DNA of 64,000 nucleotides, taken from positions 161,572,001-161,636,000 of the forward strand of contig OZ024741.1 in assembly GCA_964016885.1 (NCBI GenBank), given 5' to 3'. A program made the translations under genes and the position numbers. Below, piece by piece: positions 2,800-55,067 of the stretch (positions are counted from its first letter, which is position 1; the number at the start of each line of letters is the position of its first letter). The DNA is from Eledone cirrhosa. Lineage: Eukaryota. The notes below the pieces were generated by a model. That model saw nothing but the letters and a program-made list of their open reading frames with translations. It was not told the DNA's origin and searched no databases.

Positions 2800-3072
2800 A
2801 TGTGTTGTTTCCTTGAGCAAGACACTTTATTTCATATTGCTCCAGTTTACTCAGCTGTAGAAATGAGATGATAGGGACTGGGGTCCAAATCATTCCACTG
2901 CAAAGTGGTCATGTAGGTGCCACAACAAAAAAGCACCCAGCACTCACTGTAAATGAGGTTGGTGTTAGGAAGGGCATCCAGCTGTAGAAATCAAGCCACA
3001 ATCAGTTCCCGTCCCACCCTTGCAAGCAGGGAAAAAGTGGGCGTAAAATGAAATGAAAATGAAATGAAATGA
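2800..3072 (+). mobile_element. CORE-like SINE, 5'-truncated, with RTE-B 3' tail
   Basis: Same sequence as 9045-9308 (ccttgagcaagacacttta... to cccacccttgcaagcaggg). Confidence 0.85.
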
Positions 3073-3149
3073 TATATGTATATACATCATCATCATCATC
3101 ATTTAACGTCCATCTTCAACGCTTGCATATACATATATGTATATATATA

Positions 3150-6100
3150 TCATCATCATCATCATCATCATCAACGTTTAACGTCCGTGTTCCACGCTTG
3201 CATGGGTTTGGACGGGGGGTTTTCCCACTTGAGGCAAGAGTGATTGTCTTGCTCGCATAGGACTGTCTGGCAGGTTTTCTACAGTTGGATGCCCTTCCTA
3301 ACACCAACCACATTTACAGTGTGGGTCTGGGAGGTTTTTACCGTGTTGCCTACACGGCCACATTACAGCGTGGACTGTGTGTTTTTTTGTCGTGACACCT
3401 ACACGATCTCATTTGTTTCGGCCTGGATGGTGTGGCACCAACACAACTTTACATAGAAGGGGTGGTGTGGATGGGGGGGGGGGGGGGTATTTTATTAGAG
3501 ATGCCTACTGACTGTAGTAGGTTTTACTATGTATTTAGGTAAGGCGGGTCTTCTCTATTACTGAGTACCGCCAAAGGTCTCGGTCCAGTGACATTGTCTT
3601 GGAGAGGTGTAAGTGTGTGAGGTCGGAGTTCATCAGCTCGTCCCAGGTTTTTCTAGGTCTGCCTATTCCGTGGCTACCGTCTATCTTTATTGCCCTGCAC
3701 TTTGTTATACAGCTATCGACTTTCATGTGCATCACGTGTCCATACCAACGTAGCCTTCTCTCGAGTAAACAACATCTGATCCCTCTTATTTCTAATTTTT
3801 TCCTTAGTTCGTTTATGCTTTGCCGTTCACGTATATTACTATTACACATCCAGCGGAGCATGCAAGCTTCGTTCCTCTCTAGTCTGCGTATATCCTCTGC
3901 ACACAATGCCCAGGTCTCACTGCCATGCAACATTGCTGTTCGTATGCAGGCATCATACAACCTGCCTTTCATTTTTAGGGAGAACCCTTTAGCGGCTAAT
4001 AGTGGTATAAGCTCTCTGAACTTTTTCCATCCAGTTCTGACTCTAGCTACTGAACTTTCAGAGCACCCTCCCCCACTGCTGATTTTGTCACCCAGGTAAC
4101 GGAAGCTGTCCACTATTTCTATAGAGCCCTCTGCGCAGTTGAAAGAGCTAGTATTTTGTGGGCACTTGCTGCTACTTATTGCACCAGAGCACCAGCCACA
4201 TGTGAAATCTATGTTCTTAGTTAGCTTACCTGTGATCCCACTACATCTTTTATGCACCCATACTTTGCATTTCTGACACAAAATGGAGTTTCTACCTACG
4301 CCTTTCCTACACACTGAGCATGGCCACTTCCCGGAAGGGACCGCCGCCTTATTTTCTTTCCTACAAACTAGAACTTTGGTCTTAGCCAGATTAATTTTAA
4401 GGCCTTTTGATTCTAGGCCGTGCTTCCATGTTTGGAATTTCTTCTCTAGCTCGGCCATTGATTCAGCTATGAGTGTTAGGTCGTCTGCGTATAGGAGTTC
4501 CCATGGGCAGCCGGTCTTGAACTCCTCTGTTATAGCCTGAAGGGCAATAATAAATAGTAGGGGGCTGAGAACAGAGCCCTGATGGACGCCAACTTTTACG
4601 CTAAACTCTTCACTATATTCGTTGTTAATTCTAACCTTGCTGACTGTTTCTTTATACATGGCTTGTATAGCTCTCACAAGCCATTCGTCAACACCTAGTT
4701 TTCTAAGAGCCCACCAGATAATGGAAAGGGGGACTCTGTCGAAGGCTTTCTCCAAGTCGACAAAAGCTAAGTAGAGGGGTTTACTTTTAGCAAGGTACTT
4801 CTCCTGTAGTTGTCGTACAATGAAAAGAGCGTCTGTGGTACTTTTGCCTGACACAAACCCGAACTGCATTTCATCTAGGTCAATTCTCTCTCTGATTAGT
4901 TGCGCTATTACTTTTTCCGTGACCTTCATGACCTGGTCGATTAATTTAATGCCTCTATAGTTACTCCTATCTAGGGCATCTCCTTTACCCTTATAACAGT
5001 TAACGATGATGCTGCTACGCCAGTCCTTCGGAACAACCCCATTCTGTATGACTTGGTTTACTATCCGGGTGACCATGGTGTGTCCCACCGTGCCAGATGC
5101 CTTCAGCATCTCAGCAACTATTTCCGAAGGCCCAGCTGCCTTACCCATCTTCATATCCTTGATTGCCTTACTTATTATACTACCCTCGACTAACACTGCT
5201 GGTCCCTCTATTGGGTCGATGTGGGGGAGACTGTCTTTCTCCCATTTATTCTCCTCATTTAGTAGCCTTTCATAGTGACACTTCCAAGCTACCTTCTTAT
5301 CAGCGTCAGTGATGGCAAGTACACCATCATCATTAAGTACACACTTCTCCCCGACAATATCACGGTTTTCCTTGACACATTGCCTAGCAATCCTGAACAC
5401 CTCACGTTTTTGGTCCTCGCGTTGTAGAACATGCTTGAACTTTCTTTCCTCTGCTTCCCTTCTTGTGAAGTACACTTGTCTCCTAGCTTCCCTCCTGGCC
5501 ACTTGATAGTCTTCTCTACTTCCCCCATCTCGCCATACTTTCCAAGCCTGCTTTTTGGCCTTAATTGACCCCTCCACCTTACTGTTCCACCACCATGTTA
5601 CTCCCCTCCTCCCTACAGGCCTGCTCCAGCCACAGACTTCGTCTGCCACCATCAGCAGGTTTGCCTTCAGGAATTCCCACTGTCCCTCTATATTGTCCGA
5701 CTCTAAATGCTCTTCCTTACTGTCGAAAGCATCAAGTAATATGCTTTGGAATTTATTTCTGGCTGTGGGGTCCTTTAGTTCCATATTTTTCTCCTGAGGA
5801 TAGTCCTCTTCTGCTGTCGGGTACGTCTCGTCCTGACTATGAGGTCGCTAATTATCAGTCTATGTTGGGGGGTGCATTCTTCATGGGGGAGGGATTTAGT
5901 GTTTACAACAGACACTCTGTCGCGTCTTCTGGTAAGGATATAATCTACCTGGCTTGTGTGTTCCCCGGATCTATAGGTGATCAGGTGATTGTCACGTTTT
6001 TTGAAGTTAGTGTTACAGATGGTTAGGTTATTTGCGTCACAGAATTCCAGGATTCTGGAGCCTTCCTCATTTCTAGTACCAAACCCATAGCCTCCATGGA

Positions 6101-25201: not shown

Positions 25202-25305
25202 GTATATATATATATACATATATATATACACACACACGTATATATATATTCTAGCGTGGAAGAATGGACGTAAAACAGTGATGATGATGATATATATATA
25301 TATAT

Positions 25306-29421: not shown

Positions 29422-29614
29422 AATAATTGTTTCTACTGTTGGCACAAGGCCAGCAATTACCCAGTACATTACTGGTACTTTATTTTATCAACCCCGTGAG
29501 GATGAAAGGCAAAGTTAACCTCGGCGGTATTTGAACTCAGGCCGTAAAGGGACGTAACTCCATGCTATGAAGCAAGGTGTCCGACTCTCTACAGATTCTG
29601 CCAATCCACCGCCC
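29422..29614 (-). mobile_element. Full-length Meta-like tRNA SINE
   Basis: Head gggcggtggattggcagaat, B box gagttcaaat, Meta-like domain, A/T tail. Confidence 0.8.
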
Positions 29615-31928: not shown

Positions 31929-32144
31929 GTGTATATATATATATATATACACACACACACATATAATTATAAGAATAAAAAAATCAATAACAAACAAAAT
32001 ACATATACATGAAATCAAAGTAAAGTCAAATATAAGAAATAAAAAATAAGGGAATAAAATAACTATTAAGTTGACAGCGATGCGAAAGAGGGGAAAGGCA
32101 CAAATAAAAATAAATAAACAAACACACGTAGTAAGCAAATGTAC

Positions 32145-32980
32145 AAAATATCCCTCTTATACCCAGTTTCTCTCTCAACACATCCATGCTTGGTCGTTCA
32201 CGCACATTGATATTGCACATCCAACAGAGCATACTTGCTTCATTTCTCTCCATCACATAAACCTCTGCAGTTGCTGCCCATGTCTCACTACCATGCAGCA
32301 TCATGCATCTCACACAGGCATCATATAACCGTCCTTTCGTACGCAGGGAGAAACCCTTCTTTGTCAACAGAGGAAGCAGCTCCCTAAACTTCTTCCACAC
32401 CGTCCTTATTCTAGATACTATTGCCTCGGAACAGCTCCCTCCCATGCTAATCTGATCACCTAGGTACTGGAAGCTATCAACCACTTCTGTAGAACCCACC
32501 TGCATTGGAAAAATGTGTCTATCACTGCGATTACTACTGCCAACTTTCCCTGTACATCTACTGCATACGTAGTTTTCCCTACCTGTTAGTTTGCCTGCTA
32601 TCCCACTACATCTGTTGTGTACCCAAGATCTGCATTGCGTACATTTTATGGAATTTATGCCAGTTCCTTTTCTACATATCAAACATGGCCATTTCCCTGA
32701 TGGAATCAGAATATTGTCCTCTCTTCTACTTATCAACACTTTTGTCTTAGCTATGTTCACGCTCAGTCCTCTTGATTCCAACTGCTGTTTCCATAGCCAG
32801 AATTTATTCTCTAGCTCCTTTACTGATTCTGGTATAAGAACCAGATAATCAGCATAGAGAAGTTCCCATGGGCATCCAATCTTAAACTCCTCTGTTATGG
32901 CTTGGAGGACTATAATGATCAAGAGTGGGCTGAGGACCGAACCCTGATGTACACCTACTTGTATCTGGAATACCTCACTA
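32145..32980 (-). mobile_element. RTE-B internal fragment
   Basis: ORF 32026-33018: QGSVLSP, YADY (mutated), zinc finger, FQYLG. Confidence 0.88.
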
Positions 32981-33449
32981 TTCAAAAAACTCAGAATACA
33001 TTTATTGTATTCAGCCATTTAGAGTGAACATTTTTTTTTTAAATTTGAATATGGCAAAGCCGGCCATTGATCGCTCGTATACAGGAAACTGACTGGCCAG
33101 TCTGCTGATATGCAAATCTGGCTGATCAGTGGATCTGCTAATATGCAGATCTGACATATCAGCCAGTCTGCTAATATGCAAATCAGGCCAATCAGTCACT
33201 GTATATTTTTGAAAATATCATATATTTTCACTAGCTCTCACAGTTGACAGATGAACAGTGAACTATACTGATGAAGGGTAATACCCAGAAACATTAGTGT
33301 CTGCAATTCTGTTTACAAGCCAATACAAGAGCAAAAATGAGGGGCTCATTCTACCGACATGGCTTTCAAAATGAGGCTTGTTTGCATAATTGCAAACAAA
33401 TCGAATATTATTATTAATATTCGAAAAACTCAGATTACATTTATTATAT
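32979..33449 (+). mobile_element. Non-coding hammerhead-bearing retroelement, family H1 copy 1 (retrozyme-like)
   Basis: ~439-bp unit with terminal redundancy tattc(a/g)aaaaactcaga...catttatt; homologous to 49259-49777. Confidence 0.7.
33252..33316 (+). ncRNA. Type I hammerhead ribozyme (family H1)
   Basis: CTGATGA 33268-33274, stem II gggt/accc, GAAAC a ttag t GTC, stem I with distal gaacag/ctgttt. Confidence 0.7.
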
Positions 33450-33539
33450 ATACACACACATATATATATATATATATTTCGTTTCTGAATTTGTTTAGCA
33501 AGATTCTTTATCTGAAAACGTGTGTTGAAACCGATATTG

Positions 33540-34023
33540 TTATACTTTGGGAGGGTCATGTTGCAAATAAGAAACACACGCACCAGTTGCTTCCACTCCA
33601 ATTTATTATAAATTTAAGAATTTATAAATTTCCGGTTGGTTGGTTAGTTCCACAACCGGACGGTTGTTCATATATTGTCAAAGTTCTTTCGTCACACATT
33701 CTGTGACCTCTTCAGTGACTGGGGATTCTTTTCTTTGTTTTGTGCCTCTCCTTTCTTCTGCCCTACGCTATCTTGTTTTTGGCGTAGGACAGAACAAAGG
33801 AGAGGCACAAAACAAAGAAAATAATCCTCAGTCACTGAAGAGGTCACAGAATGTGTGACGAAAGAACTTTGACAATATATGAACAACCGTCCGGTTGTGG
33901 AACCAACCAACCAACCGGAAATTTATAAATTCTTAAATTTATAAATTTAATTTATAATAAATTGGAGTGAAAGCAACTGGTGCTGGTGTTTCTTATTGGC
34001 AACATAACCCTCCCAAAGTATAA
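33540..34023. repeat. ~480-bp palindrome with a hammerhead in each arm
   Basis: Arms ~33540-33769 and 33781-34023 are reverse complements with few mismatches; loop ~11 nt. Confidence 0.92.
33831..33873 (+). ncRNA. Minimal type I hammerhead (mirror copy on minus strand at 33677-33719)
   Basis: gtca CTGAAGA g gtcaca gaatg tgtgac GAAA g aa c TT tgac. Confidence 0.7.
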
Positions 34024-44107: not shown

Positions 44108-44471
44108 TAATGATAATAATAATAGTTTCTGATTTAGGCTCAAGGCCAACAATTTTGGAGGAGGAGAAAGTCAATTAAATCAACCCCAGTGCATTACTGG
44201 TACTTTATTTTATTGACCCCTTAAGGATGAAAATCAAAGCTAACTTCAGCAGGATTTTAACTCAACAATAATAATTGTTTCTACTTTTGGCACAAGGCCA
44301 GCAATTACCCAGTACATTACTGGTACTTTATTTTATCGACCCCGTATGGATGAAAGGCAAAGTTAACCTCGGTGGGATTTGAAATCAGATCATAAAGGGA
44401 CGTAACTATGTTGGAAAGCATGTCCGACCCTCTACCGAAACTGCCAATTCACCGCCCTAACTCAACAATAA
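44108..44471 (-). mobile_element. Two adjacent Meta-like SINEs; the second has a 14-bp TSD
   Basis: taactcaacaataa at 44258-44271 and 44458-44471 flanks the full copy. Confidence 0.8.
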
Positions 44472-45907: not shown

Positions 45908-46078
45908 ATCGGCAGTATTGGTTGAGCATCAGACACCATGCTTTGTAGCATAGAGTTATGGTCCTTTGCGTTCTGAGTTCAAATCCCACCGAGGTTAGCT
46001 TTGTTTTTCATCCTTATGGGGTCAATAAAATAAAGCACCAGTAATGCACTGGGGTAATTGCTGGCCTTGTGCCAAAAG
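45908..46078 (+). mobile_element. Meta-like SINE
   Basis: B box gagttcaaatcc, ttttcatccttatggggtcaataaa, tail. Confidence 0.75.
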
Positions 46079-49164: not shown

Positions 49165-49777
49165 ATTGCAAACAAGTCTCAATTTTATAGCAATGTCAGT
49201 AGAATGAACCCTTTATTCTTGCTCTTGTGTTGGCATGTGAATAGTTCTGCTTATAAGTAAGGGTTCATTCTACTGACATGGCTATAAAATTGAGGCTTGT
49301 TTGCATAATTGCAACGAAATGAATGTTATTAATATTCGAAAAACTCAGATTACATTTATTGTATTCAGCCATGTATTGGCAAAGCCAGCCATTTATCGCT
49401 CGTATACAGGAAACTGACTGGCCAGTCTGCTGATATGCAAATCTGGCTGATCAGTGGATCTGCTAATATGCAGATCAGCCAGTCTGCTAGTATGCAAATC
49501 AGGCCGATCAGTCACTGTGTATTTTTGAAAATAGCATATATTTTCACTAGCTCTGACAGTTTGGCAAGTGAACAGTGAGCTGTACTGATAAAGGGTGATA
49601 CCCAGAAACATTAGTGTCTGCAGTTCTGTTCACATGCCAAAACAAGAACAAGAATGAAAGGTTCATTCTACTGACATGGCTATAAAATTGAGGCTTGTTT
49701 GCATAATTGCAAACGAATCGAATGTTATTATTAATATTCGAAAAACTCAGATTACATTTATTATATTCAGCCATGTA
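49165..49777 (+). mobile_element. Family H1 copy 2: inverted 5' piece plus ~1.3 tandem units
   Basis: ~115-bp direct repeat 49259-49374 / 49659-49777; 49165-49250 is the reverse complement of ~49620-49712. Confidence 0.75.
49561..49640 (+). ncRNA. Type I hammerhead with extended stem I (core variant CTGATAA)
   Basis: ttggca a gtgaacag tg agctgta CTGATAA a gggt gat accc a GAAAC a ttag t GTC tgcagtt ctgttcac a tgccaa. Confidence 0.7.
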
Positions 49778-49789
49778 GAGTGAAAATTT

Positions 49790-49827
<38 letters not shown>

Positions 49828-50540: not shown

Positions 50541-50904
50541 AAAGTTCTATTTAAATTGTTGGGATACAACAAGCAAATATTTTTATAACTGATATAAAGC
50601 ACTCAACAAATATTTGGAGTAAAAATACGATATTAACAAATGGAAACTATATTTATAAAACCATATTTATTTCATTATACATATTTCAAGGACACCAAGT
50701 TAAATTATGGTGTGCTTTCATCAGATAAAATATAACATAGATCAGTTTTATAAATAAATATTGACATACCCTTAAAGAATGCAACCATTACTGTTGGAAG
50801 CTCCAATTATCTGATGAAAGCACACCATAATTTAACTTGGTGTCCTTGAAATATATATAATGAAATAAATATGGTTTTATAAATAGTTTCCATTTGATAA
50901 TATC

Positions 50905-54367: not shown

Positions 54368-55067
54368 TCGACTGACAGGAAGGTATACGGTGCTGATGAC
54401 AGTTAATAAGCTAGAAACTAGTTCATCGTTCCTTTGTCAGTGTTGAACAAAAGGGCAATGATGGTTGCCAAACACTGTACGGCTTAATTCGGGCTGTTTG
54501 TTTACAAACAAACCTAACATTATAATAAATGTTCAGTAAACCCATACGTACATATATATGTGTGTGCATGTATGTATGTATATACATACTACTGTACGTC
54601 TGTGTACATATATGTATGAACGTATACATACTTATATTTAAGTATCAGCCGTACTTAGAGTGAGAAATGAAATTTCATTTTTCCCATTTATCGTTTCCGG
54701 TATGCCTAGCAGACTAACTCACTCGATATGCACATTAGGCTGCTCAGCCGTTAATATGCATAAGGAAAGTATATACTTTCAAACGTTCAATCGACTGACA
54801 GGAAGGTATACGGTGCTGAACAAAAGGGCAACGATGGTTGCCGAACACTGTACAACTTAATTCGTGCTGTTTGTTTACAAACAAACCGAACATTATAATA
54901 AATGTTCGGTAAACCCATACTTACATATATATATATGTGTGTGCATGTATGTATGTATATACATACTACTGTACGTCTGTATACATATATGTATGTACGT
55001 ATACATACTTATATTTAAGTATCAGCCGTACTAAGGGTGAGAATTGAAATTTCATTTTTTCCATTTA
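54368..55067 (+). mobile_element. Family H2 hammerhead-bearing partial tandem (~423-bp unit); fragment also at 49936-50130
   Basis: Unit restarts at 54791 (tcgactgacaggaagg); TA-flanked; no credible ORF. Confidence 0.75.
54371..54441 (+). ncRNA. Type I hammerhead with extended stem I (family H2)
   Basis: actgacag..agg..acggtg CTGATGA c agtt aata agct a GAAA c ta g TT catcgt t cct ttgtcagt. Confidence 0.75.

Follow-up and report, generated by a model that had tools for sequence, protein, structure and literature searches.

An ORF-less, hammerhead-bearing repeat of Eledone cirrhosa with Penelope-like insertion ends

In a 64-kb stretch of the Eledone cirrhosa genome, the whole of which is referred to here as the window, two copies of a repeat named H1 combine a hammerhead ribozyme motif with a terminally redundant unit. 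This locus raises the question of how a repeat of this kind has been multiplied, by what machinery and from what form of RNA. A preliminary description took H1 for a retrozyme candidate, and this retrozyme-like reading (ORF-less, hammerhead-bearing, with Penelope-like insertion) is supported here by the unit, the motif and the insertion ends. Both copies were found where they had been placed (32979-33449 and 49259-49777), with copy 2 running on beyond 49777 to 49797, and each carries a single hammerhead core. Positions within the unit follow a natural reference copy (L004:1645-2078, numbered u1-u434), in which the core lies at u223 and the predicted cut after u256. The features of the two copies are as follows.

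32979..33039, + strand: copy 1, 5'-truncated upstream unit (u372-432), with tail
33045..33449, + strand: copy 1, unit u1-403, stopping at the tail-less end point and followed by TA/CA repeats
33244..33323, + strand: copy 1, hammerhead motif, with CTGATGA at 33268-33274, predicted cut 3' of C33301 and decayed stem I
49167..49250, - strand: copy 2, inverted arm (u258-341), from blastn
49259..49375, + strand: copy 2, 5'-truncated upstream unit (u295-414)
49376..49797, + strand: copy 2, full unit (u7-434), 93.5% to the reference copy
49413..49512, + strand: copy 2, self-complementary repeats of ~33 nt, predicted long hairpin
49561..49640, + strand: copy 2, type I hammerhead motif, from sequence, folds and covariation
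49561-49584 and 49619-49640, + strand: copy 2, arms of hammerhead stem I
49585-49591, + strand: copy 2, core CTGATAA, with A49590 where the family has G
49592 and 49604, + strand: copy 2, the two extra As, with stem II at 49593-49603
49605-49608, + strand: copy 2, GAAA, followed by helix III CATTAGTG at 49609-49616 and a predicted cut 3' of C49618
49762..49797, + strand: copy 2, optional 36-nt tail, between the fixed 3' end points u398/403 and u434
49795..49824, no strand: (TA)n target microsatellite after copy 2

The terminal redundancy had been read as one unit plus a repeated start; in both copies it is instead the 3' end of a 5'-truncated upstream unit. The inverted fragment with which copy 2 was said to open is indeed an inverted arm (49167-49250 by blastn), whose 5' end adjoins the predicted ribozyme cut (u256|257) and whose outer 3' end is absent. 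The proposed unit size of about 400-440 nt suits the normal unit of ~434-439 nt, while copy 2 departs from it by lacking ~27 nt at the junction between its upstream and full units. The GUC triplet and the stem I pairings were recovered in the sequence and folds of both copies; as had been noticed, copy 1 keeps CTGATGA and has a weakened stem I (fold z of -1.3, against -3.8 for copy 2), and copy 2 carries CTGATAA.

At the family level, H1 is a dispersed non-coding repeat with a unit of 434-439 nt (~437), present in copies of 0.2-2.3 units. In this 3.0-Gb genome, rich in AT microsatellites, the 34-nt hammerhead core occurs in 1,104 exact copies and the 36-nt tail motif in 1,539, with 0 for the control in either case. 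The usual core of the family is CTGATGA, as had been expected from the two window copies. The true copy number is probably 3,000-5,000, and the median divergence from the column majority is 3.1% over 300 H1 segments. The sample consisted of 86 core-anchored insertions from the first 100 core matches, 101 tail anchors, the 30 best matches of DNA similarity searches and 111 junction anchors retained from 130 places considered (100 of 245 and 30 of 255 pattern matches, the first list being followed as far as C2:296 Mb); three loci duplicating others were removed before the divergence and lineage measurements. H1 lineage variants and end-to-start joints are also present in contigs from three sequencing runs of unrecorded kind. 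One contig of 321 nt (run X4, record 11; depth 644) carries an H1 variant changed in stem II and in GAAA.

The absence of a credible ORF was confirmed in four natural tandems, where the longest ATG-started frames span 47-83 aa and differ among copies. When PLE proteins of this genome were compared by tblastn with 333 H1-bearing loci (some of them fetched twice), 80 gave matches and no consistent ORF join was found; the close PLE-H1 matches are mid-ORF neighbours or an artefact of one query containing antisense H1. Upstream of u1 one finds another unit's tail, an arm in inverted orientation or flanking sequence unrelated to H1, and the H1 unit therefore closes on itself. These data bear on the idea that H1 is no more than the pLTR, or 3' end, of an autonomous PLE, full copies of which are scarce or were missed. 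Its end structure is the same as that of PLE pLTRs, its hammerhead precedes the 3' end points by 140-180 nt, resembling the pLTR geometry in PMC11167929, and the ~330 loci examined are a small part of several thousand, but neither the self-closing unit nor the lack of a consistent ORF start or end beside H1 in the 333 loci fits with it, and this improbable explanation is already largely refuted. The preliminary description had named fixed ends attached to a coding Penelope ORF as the sign of an ordinary pLTR: the 3' ends are fixed, and an attached ORF appears in none of the 333 loci. Ancestry of H1 from a deleted PLE is nevertheless likely.

The ends of H1 insertions are strongly patterned. 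Their 5' ends lie at scattered positions, whereas the 3' ends run into (TA)n at fixed points: of 148 terminal 3' ends in core-anchored loci, 67 fall at u385-404 and 53 at u418-434, with 3 between the two clusters and 25 shorter. Inspection by eye places the end points at u398/403 and ~u432-434, ~36 nt apart and each finishing in TAT. The circular permutation anticipated for the copies is thus not seen. Truncation is strand-asymmetric among H1 copies, and 100 head-to-head (inversion) junctions are present in the core- and tail-anchored loci, about half of them with short overlaps. A microsatellite adjoins 150 of the 178 outer ends of 89 two-armed insertions, and the tail sits on exactly one arm in 35 of the 43 two-armed insertions that were not chosen by tail (P=2e-5). 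According to the available text of Craig et al. (PMC8557442), the marks of a PLE insertion are truncation at the 5' end, partial tandems, an inverted copy alongside and, at one end only, a tail of 30-40 bp. H1 displays all of these marks, its tail being 36 nt long, together with an AT-rich/microsatellite target. A PLE protein has also been demonstrated to cleave AT-rich DNA on both strands and to start cDNA at two internal RNA sites bounding the tail (Frangieh et al., PMC11167929). The suggestion of a Penelope-like insertion is borne out by the tail asymmetry, the two outward-facing arms, the TA target and the 5' truncation. PLE-type ends at (TA)n make it likely that H1 was copied in trans by a PLE RT/endonuclease.

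We consider it most likely that H1 is a non-autonomous PLE passenger, probably an ORF-loss PLE derivative, inserted by two-ended TPRT at (TA)n from continuous RNA. A PLE enzyme would cut both strands of a TA repeat, and cDNA would be primed on two RNAs, at u398/403 and u434, starting inside the RNA; such RNA-internal initiation has been shown in vitro for the Anolis PLE. The two truncated cDNAs would then be joined through microhomology. Most templates would be uncut multimeric RNA (or re-ligated monomer), and a minority would be ribozyme-cut, giving 5' ends at u254-259. The rival idea that H1 is a tandem repeat or satellite propagated at the DNA level, through recombination or DNA transposition, could appeal to the existence of tandem units and to a C19 locus with 90-bp repeats of an H1 fragment (a minisatellite at G000:C19:27056060-27056670). 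It is hardly credible in view of the strand-asymmetric truncation, the 3' ends fixed at (TA)n, the RNA-type G-U covariation and the dispersal of copies of 0.2-2.3 units, and the end statistics already contradict it.

A SINE found within H1 was considered as a carrier of the H1 tail or a co-mobilised element and proved to be an ordinary SINE family, with 65,048 exact 33-mers. Of 259 H1 sites, 48 are occupied by it, ~2x the rate in the flanks, where 8.8% of TTATTA clusters are occupied; the two arms of an H1 insertion are filled independently (P=0.13), and H1 age is the same with or without it (P=0.40). The SINE in H1 was judged to be an ordinary insertion at a favoured site. This tRNA-type SINE targets a palindromic ATTATT site at H1 u364 (for example in L061, L072 and L201), with variable duplications of 0-18 nt. 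Further copies lie in the window at 44276-44453, 29428-29610 and 45908-46078, and at L127 the 44-bp 5' end of the SINE forms a minisatellite of ~19 copies.

The ribozyme motif had been described as a full type I hammerhead. The motif itself and a covarying stem I hold, but the core is not canonical, as an extra A stands on each side of stem II. The family core reads CUGAUGA-A-GGGU-loop-ACCC-A-GAAAC, and the As flanking GGGU and ACCC are present in 207 of 211 and 209 of 212 segments, respectively, in a sample partly selected on the core; both also occur in an older H1 lineage. The closing pair of stem II therefore does not lie directly between A9 and G12, as it does in canonical type I hammerheads. 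At E<=10, Rfam returned no hammerhead match for 49500-49700, and there was none for the whole window among the 150 matches listed of 316, all of which were microsatellite or hairpin miRNA noise. In the available text of PMC4209133, PLE hammerheads typically carry an additional nucleotide after A9; for the second extra A, before G12, by which H1 differs from them, the literature search returned no precedent. Were such a two-extra-A core to cut, it would widen the known hammerhead core.

Between H1 lineages, the RNA fold covaries. Stem I comprises 21 predicted pairs, and the unit folds with z=-9.6 relative to shuffles. Across 40 copies picked to span the young and older lineages, 94.4% of cells are paired in the hammerhead plus the next hairpin, against 32-46% in slid controls, with covarying pair types AU/GU/GC, UA/GC and AU/CG/GC. 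The covariation score was reached by 0 of 500 shuffles, a test inflated by the relatedness of the copies; six pairs changed on both sides, a number that 50 of 500 shuffles also reach. Stem II gave no informative covariation in the 40 copies. While stem I covaries, CUGAUGA, GAAAC and GUC are unchanged across lineages that are ~82% alike. In a single copy, an alternative CUGAUG/CAUUAG fold is predicted to lie 6.2 kcal/mol below the catalytic one. Helix III, CAUUAGUG, is self-complementary with two G-U pairs, and its sequence suggests that it could pair with a second copy of itself in the manner of a double hammerhead; the available descriptions of PLE pLTR hammerheads likewise include a short palindromic helix III suggesting a double hammerhead. 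On account of this helix and of the non-catalytic preference of ~6 kcal/mol, cutting probably needs two ribozymes per RNA. Given the two extra As, the lack of covariation in stem II and the lack of an Rfam match, the ribozyme may be weak or dead.

If H1 RNA is cut, some 5' ends could be expected at the ribozyme site. In the tail-anchored sample the truncation hazard is 0.0115/nt at u254-279 and 0.002-0.006 elsewhere. In the discovery set, where the excess was noticed post hoc, 6 of the 24 upstream arms reaching the site stop at u254-257; among new loci chosen by junction motif alone, 5 of 31 stop at u254-259 against 1.35 expected (P=0.012). Terminal arms stop at the cut site in 4 of 45 cases, and ~80-90% of all arms that reach it read through. 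5'-end piles of similar magnitude stand at u270, u301 and u356 (at u356 an indel in the reference copy is partly responsible). Because the palindrome CTGCAG overlaps the cut site, microhomology or RT pausing could contribute to the excess; the TGCA sites u338 and u346 show no comparable excess. A truncation-hazard step at the cut site was not obtained, as a one-change-point fit fell at u316-325, and confinement of the excess to upstream units was not established (11 of 55 upstream vs 4 of 45 terminal). With moderate confidence, the excess is attributed to a minority of ribozyme-cut linear templates, and the 5' ends of H1 would thus preserve a replicated, if modest, genomic sign that the ribozyme site was cleaved. 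A rather doubtful alternative is that the hammerhead is a non-catalytic relic kept as a protein-binding structure, the excess arising from RT pausing plus microhomology. The modified core, the more stable alternative fold, the 5'-end piles at other hairpins and the missing Rfam match would all be accounted for in that way, but not the constancy of CUGAUGA, GAAAC and GUC beside a covarying stem I, nor an excess that sits at the predicted position, is replicated in new loci and has no counterpart at u338 and u346.

The joints between successive units speak to the form of the template. All 96 direct junctions are free of TA runs; 92 retain the tail, and in 87 the sequence resumes at u<=8. Passage through two junctions was seen in 2 of 95 new arms (L436, with ~2.3 units, and L386). 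Precise head-to-tail junctions that keep the tail and extend to 2.3 units mean that the template RNA was continuous across the unit junction. In the predicted fold, the tail is base-paired with u28-33 of the following unit, and u434 falls in a U-rich stretch that stays unpaired. An RNA 5' end at u1 combined with end-to-end jumping is disfavoured by the 92 junctions with tail; a T-rich tail is almost always present 5' of u1. Two whole cores stand in tandem in 15 core-anchored loci and in many more of the matches to a dimer query, and the 40 best of these matches include no long H1 arrays. The derivation of the redundancy from a circular or multimeric RNA, put forward in the preliminary description, is accordingly sustained as to a continuous template, and a circle is not singled out, since linear multimers explain the junctions equally. 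Fixed 3' ends are compatible with a circle because PLE RT initiates internally at two sites (PMC11167929).

Lineage markers indicate how often two units came from one source. Background discordance between units is 6.5% in 120 direct tandems. At the lineage marker u298 (G/T), 8 of 69 tandems are discordant, where 33.8 would be expected at random and later mutation would account for 2.6% (66 of 2,583). These counts imply that ~4/5 of tandems carry one lineage and ~1/5 two. Inverted arms share lineage at 0.84 vs 0.66 by chance, and their discordance at u298 (26 of 86) denotes less sharing than one molecule would give. Mixed tandems cannot derive from one circle read twice without template switching. 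Together with the 5'-end excess at the cut site, the ~1/5 of mixed tandems speak for linear or mixed templates in some of the family.

A circular intermediate would refine the passenger explanation rather than exclude it: an RNA with two ribozymes would be cut twice, the monomer ligated, and a PLE RT would start at the tail and roll, regenerating dimers. This is a genuine possibility, if one short of an even chance. It agrees with the read-through of ~80-90% of arms at the cut site, with precise junctions that keep the tail, with the ~4/5 of single-lineage tandems and with the 15 loci bearing two whole cores, and it would explain the renewal of dimers. The lineages with compensatory changes would imply that sources are renewed, whereas 5' truncation would erode them under a purely linear model, which needs long-lived multimer sources. 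In addition, retrozymes of coral, mussel and axolotl make circles, according to the available text of PMC7229834. Against this stand the u298 discordance in excess of later mutation, which leaves ~1/5 of tandems that are not one molecule read twice, and the second-pass stops at the cut site, which a circle would not lead one to expect. Moreover, for the Anolis PLE in vitro cleavage is dispensable and uncut RNA is the main substrate (PMC11167929), and 8 of 9 Xenopus retrozyme dimers are uncleaved (bioRxiv 10.64898/2026.07.22.740005). A more specific version, in which a germline dimer RNA is cut by the variant double hammerhead into a ~437-nt circle on which a PLE RT starts at the tail and rolls, is put forward only tentatively, as rather less likely. 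If true, it would constitute direct evidence that animal circular RNAs are mobilised by PLE enzymes, and the 5' ends would preserve a fossil record of ribozyme cleavage in vivo.

The passenger explanation supposes a partner, and the same genome contains young PLEs. One autonomous family, with copies at 98-99% protein identity and open frames to ~1,280 aa, makes two-armed insertions with a ~56-nt tail (L314, L316, L328 and L329), a pattern that is a within-genome positive control for the H1 ends. The young PLE families seen in L314-L333 and L294-L313 comprise this one and two others, one with frames of ~830 aa and ending in (CA)n, where a regex found no core motif in the 3' UTR, the other with ~825 aa and a minimal hammerhead. 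These young long-frame families are candidate partner enzymes, and their presence makes both the partner and the circle directly testable. None of the four or five ORF-bearing PLE families sampled shares the 3' end of H1; likewise, protein searches and 20 fetched loci yielded no partner with that end. The sampled families have their own 3' ends, most with their own minimal hammerheads. From their motifs, we take the sampled PLEs to include Neptune-like and Hydra-like ones; Pfam gave a weak RVT_1 match in one of three PLE proteins. In a single chimera (L119), the ~57-nt tail of the young autonomous PLE family lies head-to-head with an H1 arm, both ends being in TA repeats, a possible H1/PLE co-insertion that is a lead to the partner and not proof. 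A second candidate (L056), head-to-head with an 80%-identical older PLE copy, was discarded because that copy stops before its own 3' end, and insertion of H1 into an old PLE copy is more likely. In the window, a short two-armed insertion of the young autonomous PLE family (33460-34020) shares the TA run of H1 copy 1; its hairpin is centred at 33697-33852, and CTGAAGA...GAAA hammerheads lie on both strands, at 33835 and 33715.

Animal retrozymes have been defined, with circles in coral, mussel and axolotl and PLEs as candidate partners, in the available text of Cervera and de la Pena 2020 (PMC7229834). Vertebrate retrozymes have since been linked to pLTRs, with no mollusc sampled and with cleavage seen in 1 of 9 elements (Li, Clavereau and Pollet 2026, bioRxiv 10.64898/2026.07.22.740005). 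Like animal non-LTR retrozymes, H1 has a non-coding unit in the 150-450-bp range with a type I hammerhead in each, low GC, a highly self-paired fold, thousands of copies and head-to-tail repeats, and PLEs have been proposed as the mobilising partner. Judged from its sequence, H1 would be placed among animal retrozymes by their genomic definition. It differs from them in its dispersed, truncated insertions of 0.2-2.3 units in place of long arrays, in a core with two extra As and in the lack of a matching pLTR among the sampled PLEs. The tail, two arms and TA target of H1 are not reported in the available text of PMC7229834 and the bioRxiv preprint, where the PLE-retrozyme link is argued from co-occurrence and pLTR similarity.

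With endonuclease PLEs, as far as the available texts of PMC8557442, PMC4209133 and PMC11167929 describe them, H1 has in common the 5' truncation, partial tandems, inverted copy, optional 30-40-bp tail and AT-rich/microsatellite target; unlike them it is without an ORF, and its stem I, with 21 predicted pairs, is long where theirs is minimal. Chlamys PLEs, such as MRC1 of Chlamydomonas, also include ORF-less passengers, pLTRs and head-to-tail insertions in the available text of PMC8557442. There, non-autonomous members have 3' sequence in common with an autonomous family and most Chlamys are without canonical hammerheads, whereas H1 has a hammerhead and no autonomous relative among the sampled families. 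A search of the accessible literature found no description of the H1 family or its core variant, and the supplements of PMC7229834 and of the bioRxiv preprint may list related families. H1 is thus of a kind already known, and it is the core variant and the explicit PLE end marks that differ. H1 bears on which enzyme mobilises animal retrozymes and on the role of PLE hammerheads, as its tail asymmetry, two arms and TA target provide insertion-level evidence of an ORF-less hammerhead repeat using PLE machinery.

Other features were seen in the window and in the fetched loci. A LINE-type RT open frame on the - strand (~32030-32978) abuts H1 copy 1 and is, by its motifs, presumably RTE-like; similar frames occur at 25250(-), 15537(+), 5847(-), 2826(-) and 7643(+). 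A second type I hammerhead repeat family, GGTACGGTG-CTGAYGA...GAAA-CTAG, is present in L149, L224, L235 and at window position 54393; it forms ~430-bp tandems of two or three units and is a retrozyme candidate. Inverted pairs of AT-rich hammerhead motifs with a TATA helix III were observed at 50724/50811 and 55500/55668 and in many loci, and the fetched H1 flanks contain at least 8 further hammerhead families. From 62533 onward on the + strand, a 344-aa frame lies in a GC-richer stretch, and by its motifs we take it to resemble a retrotransposon zinc-knuckle/protease region.
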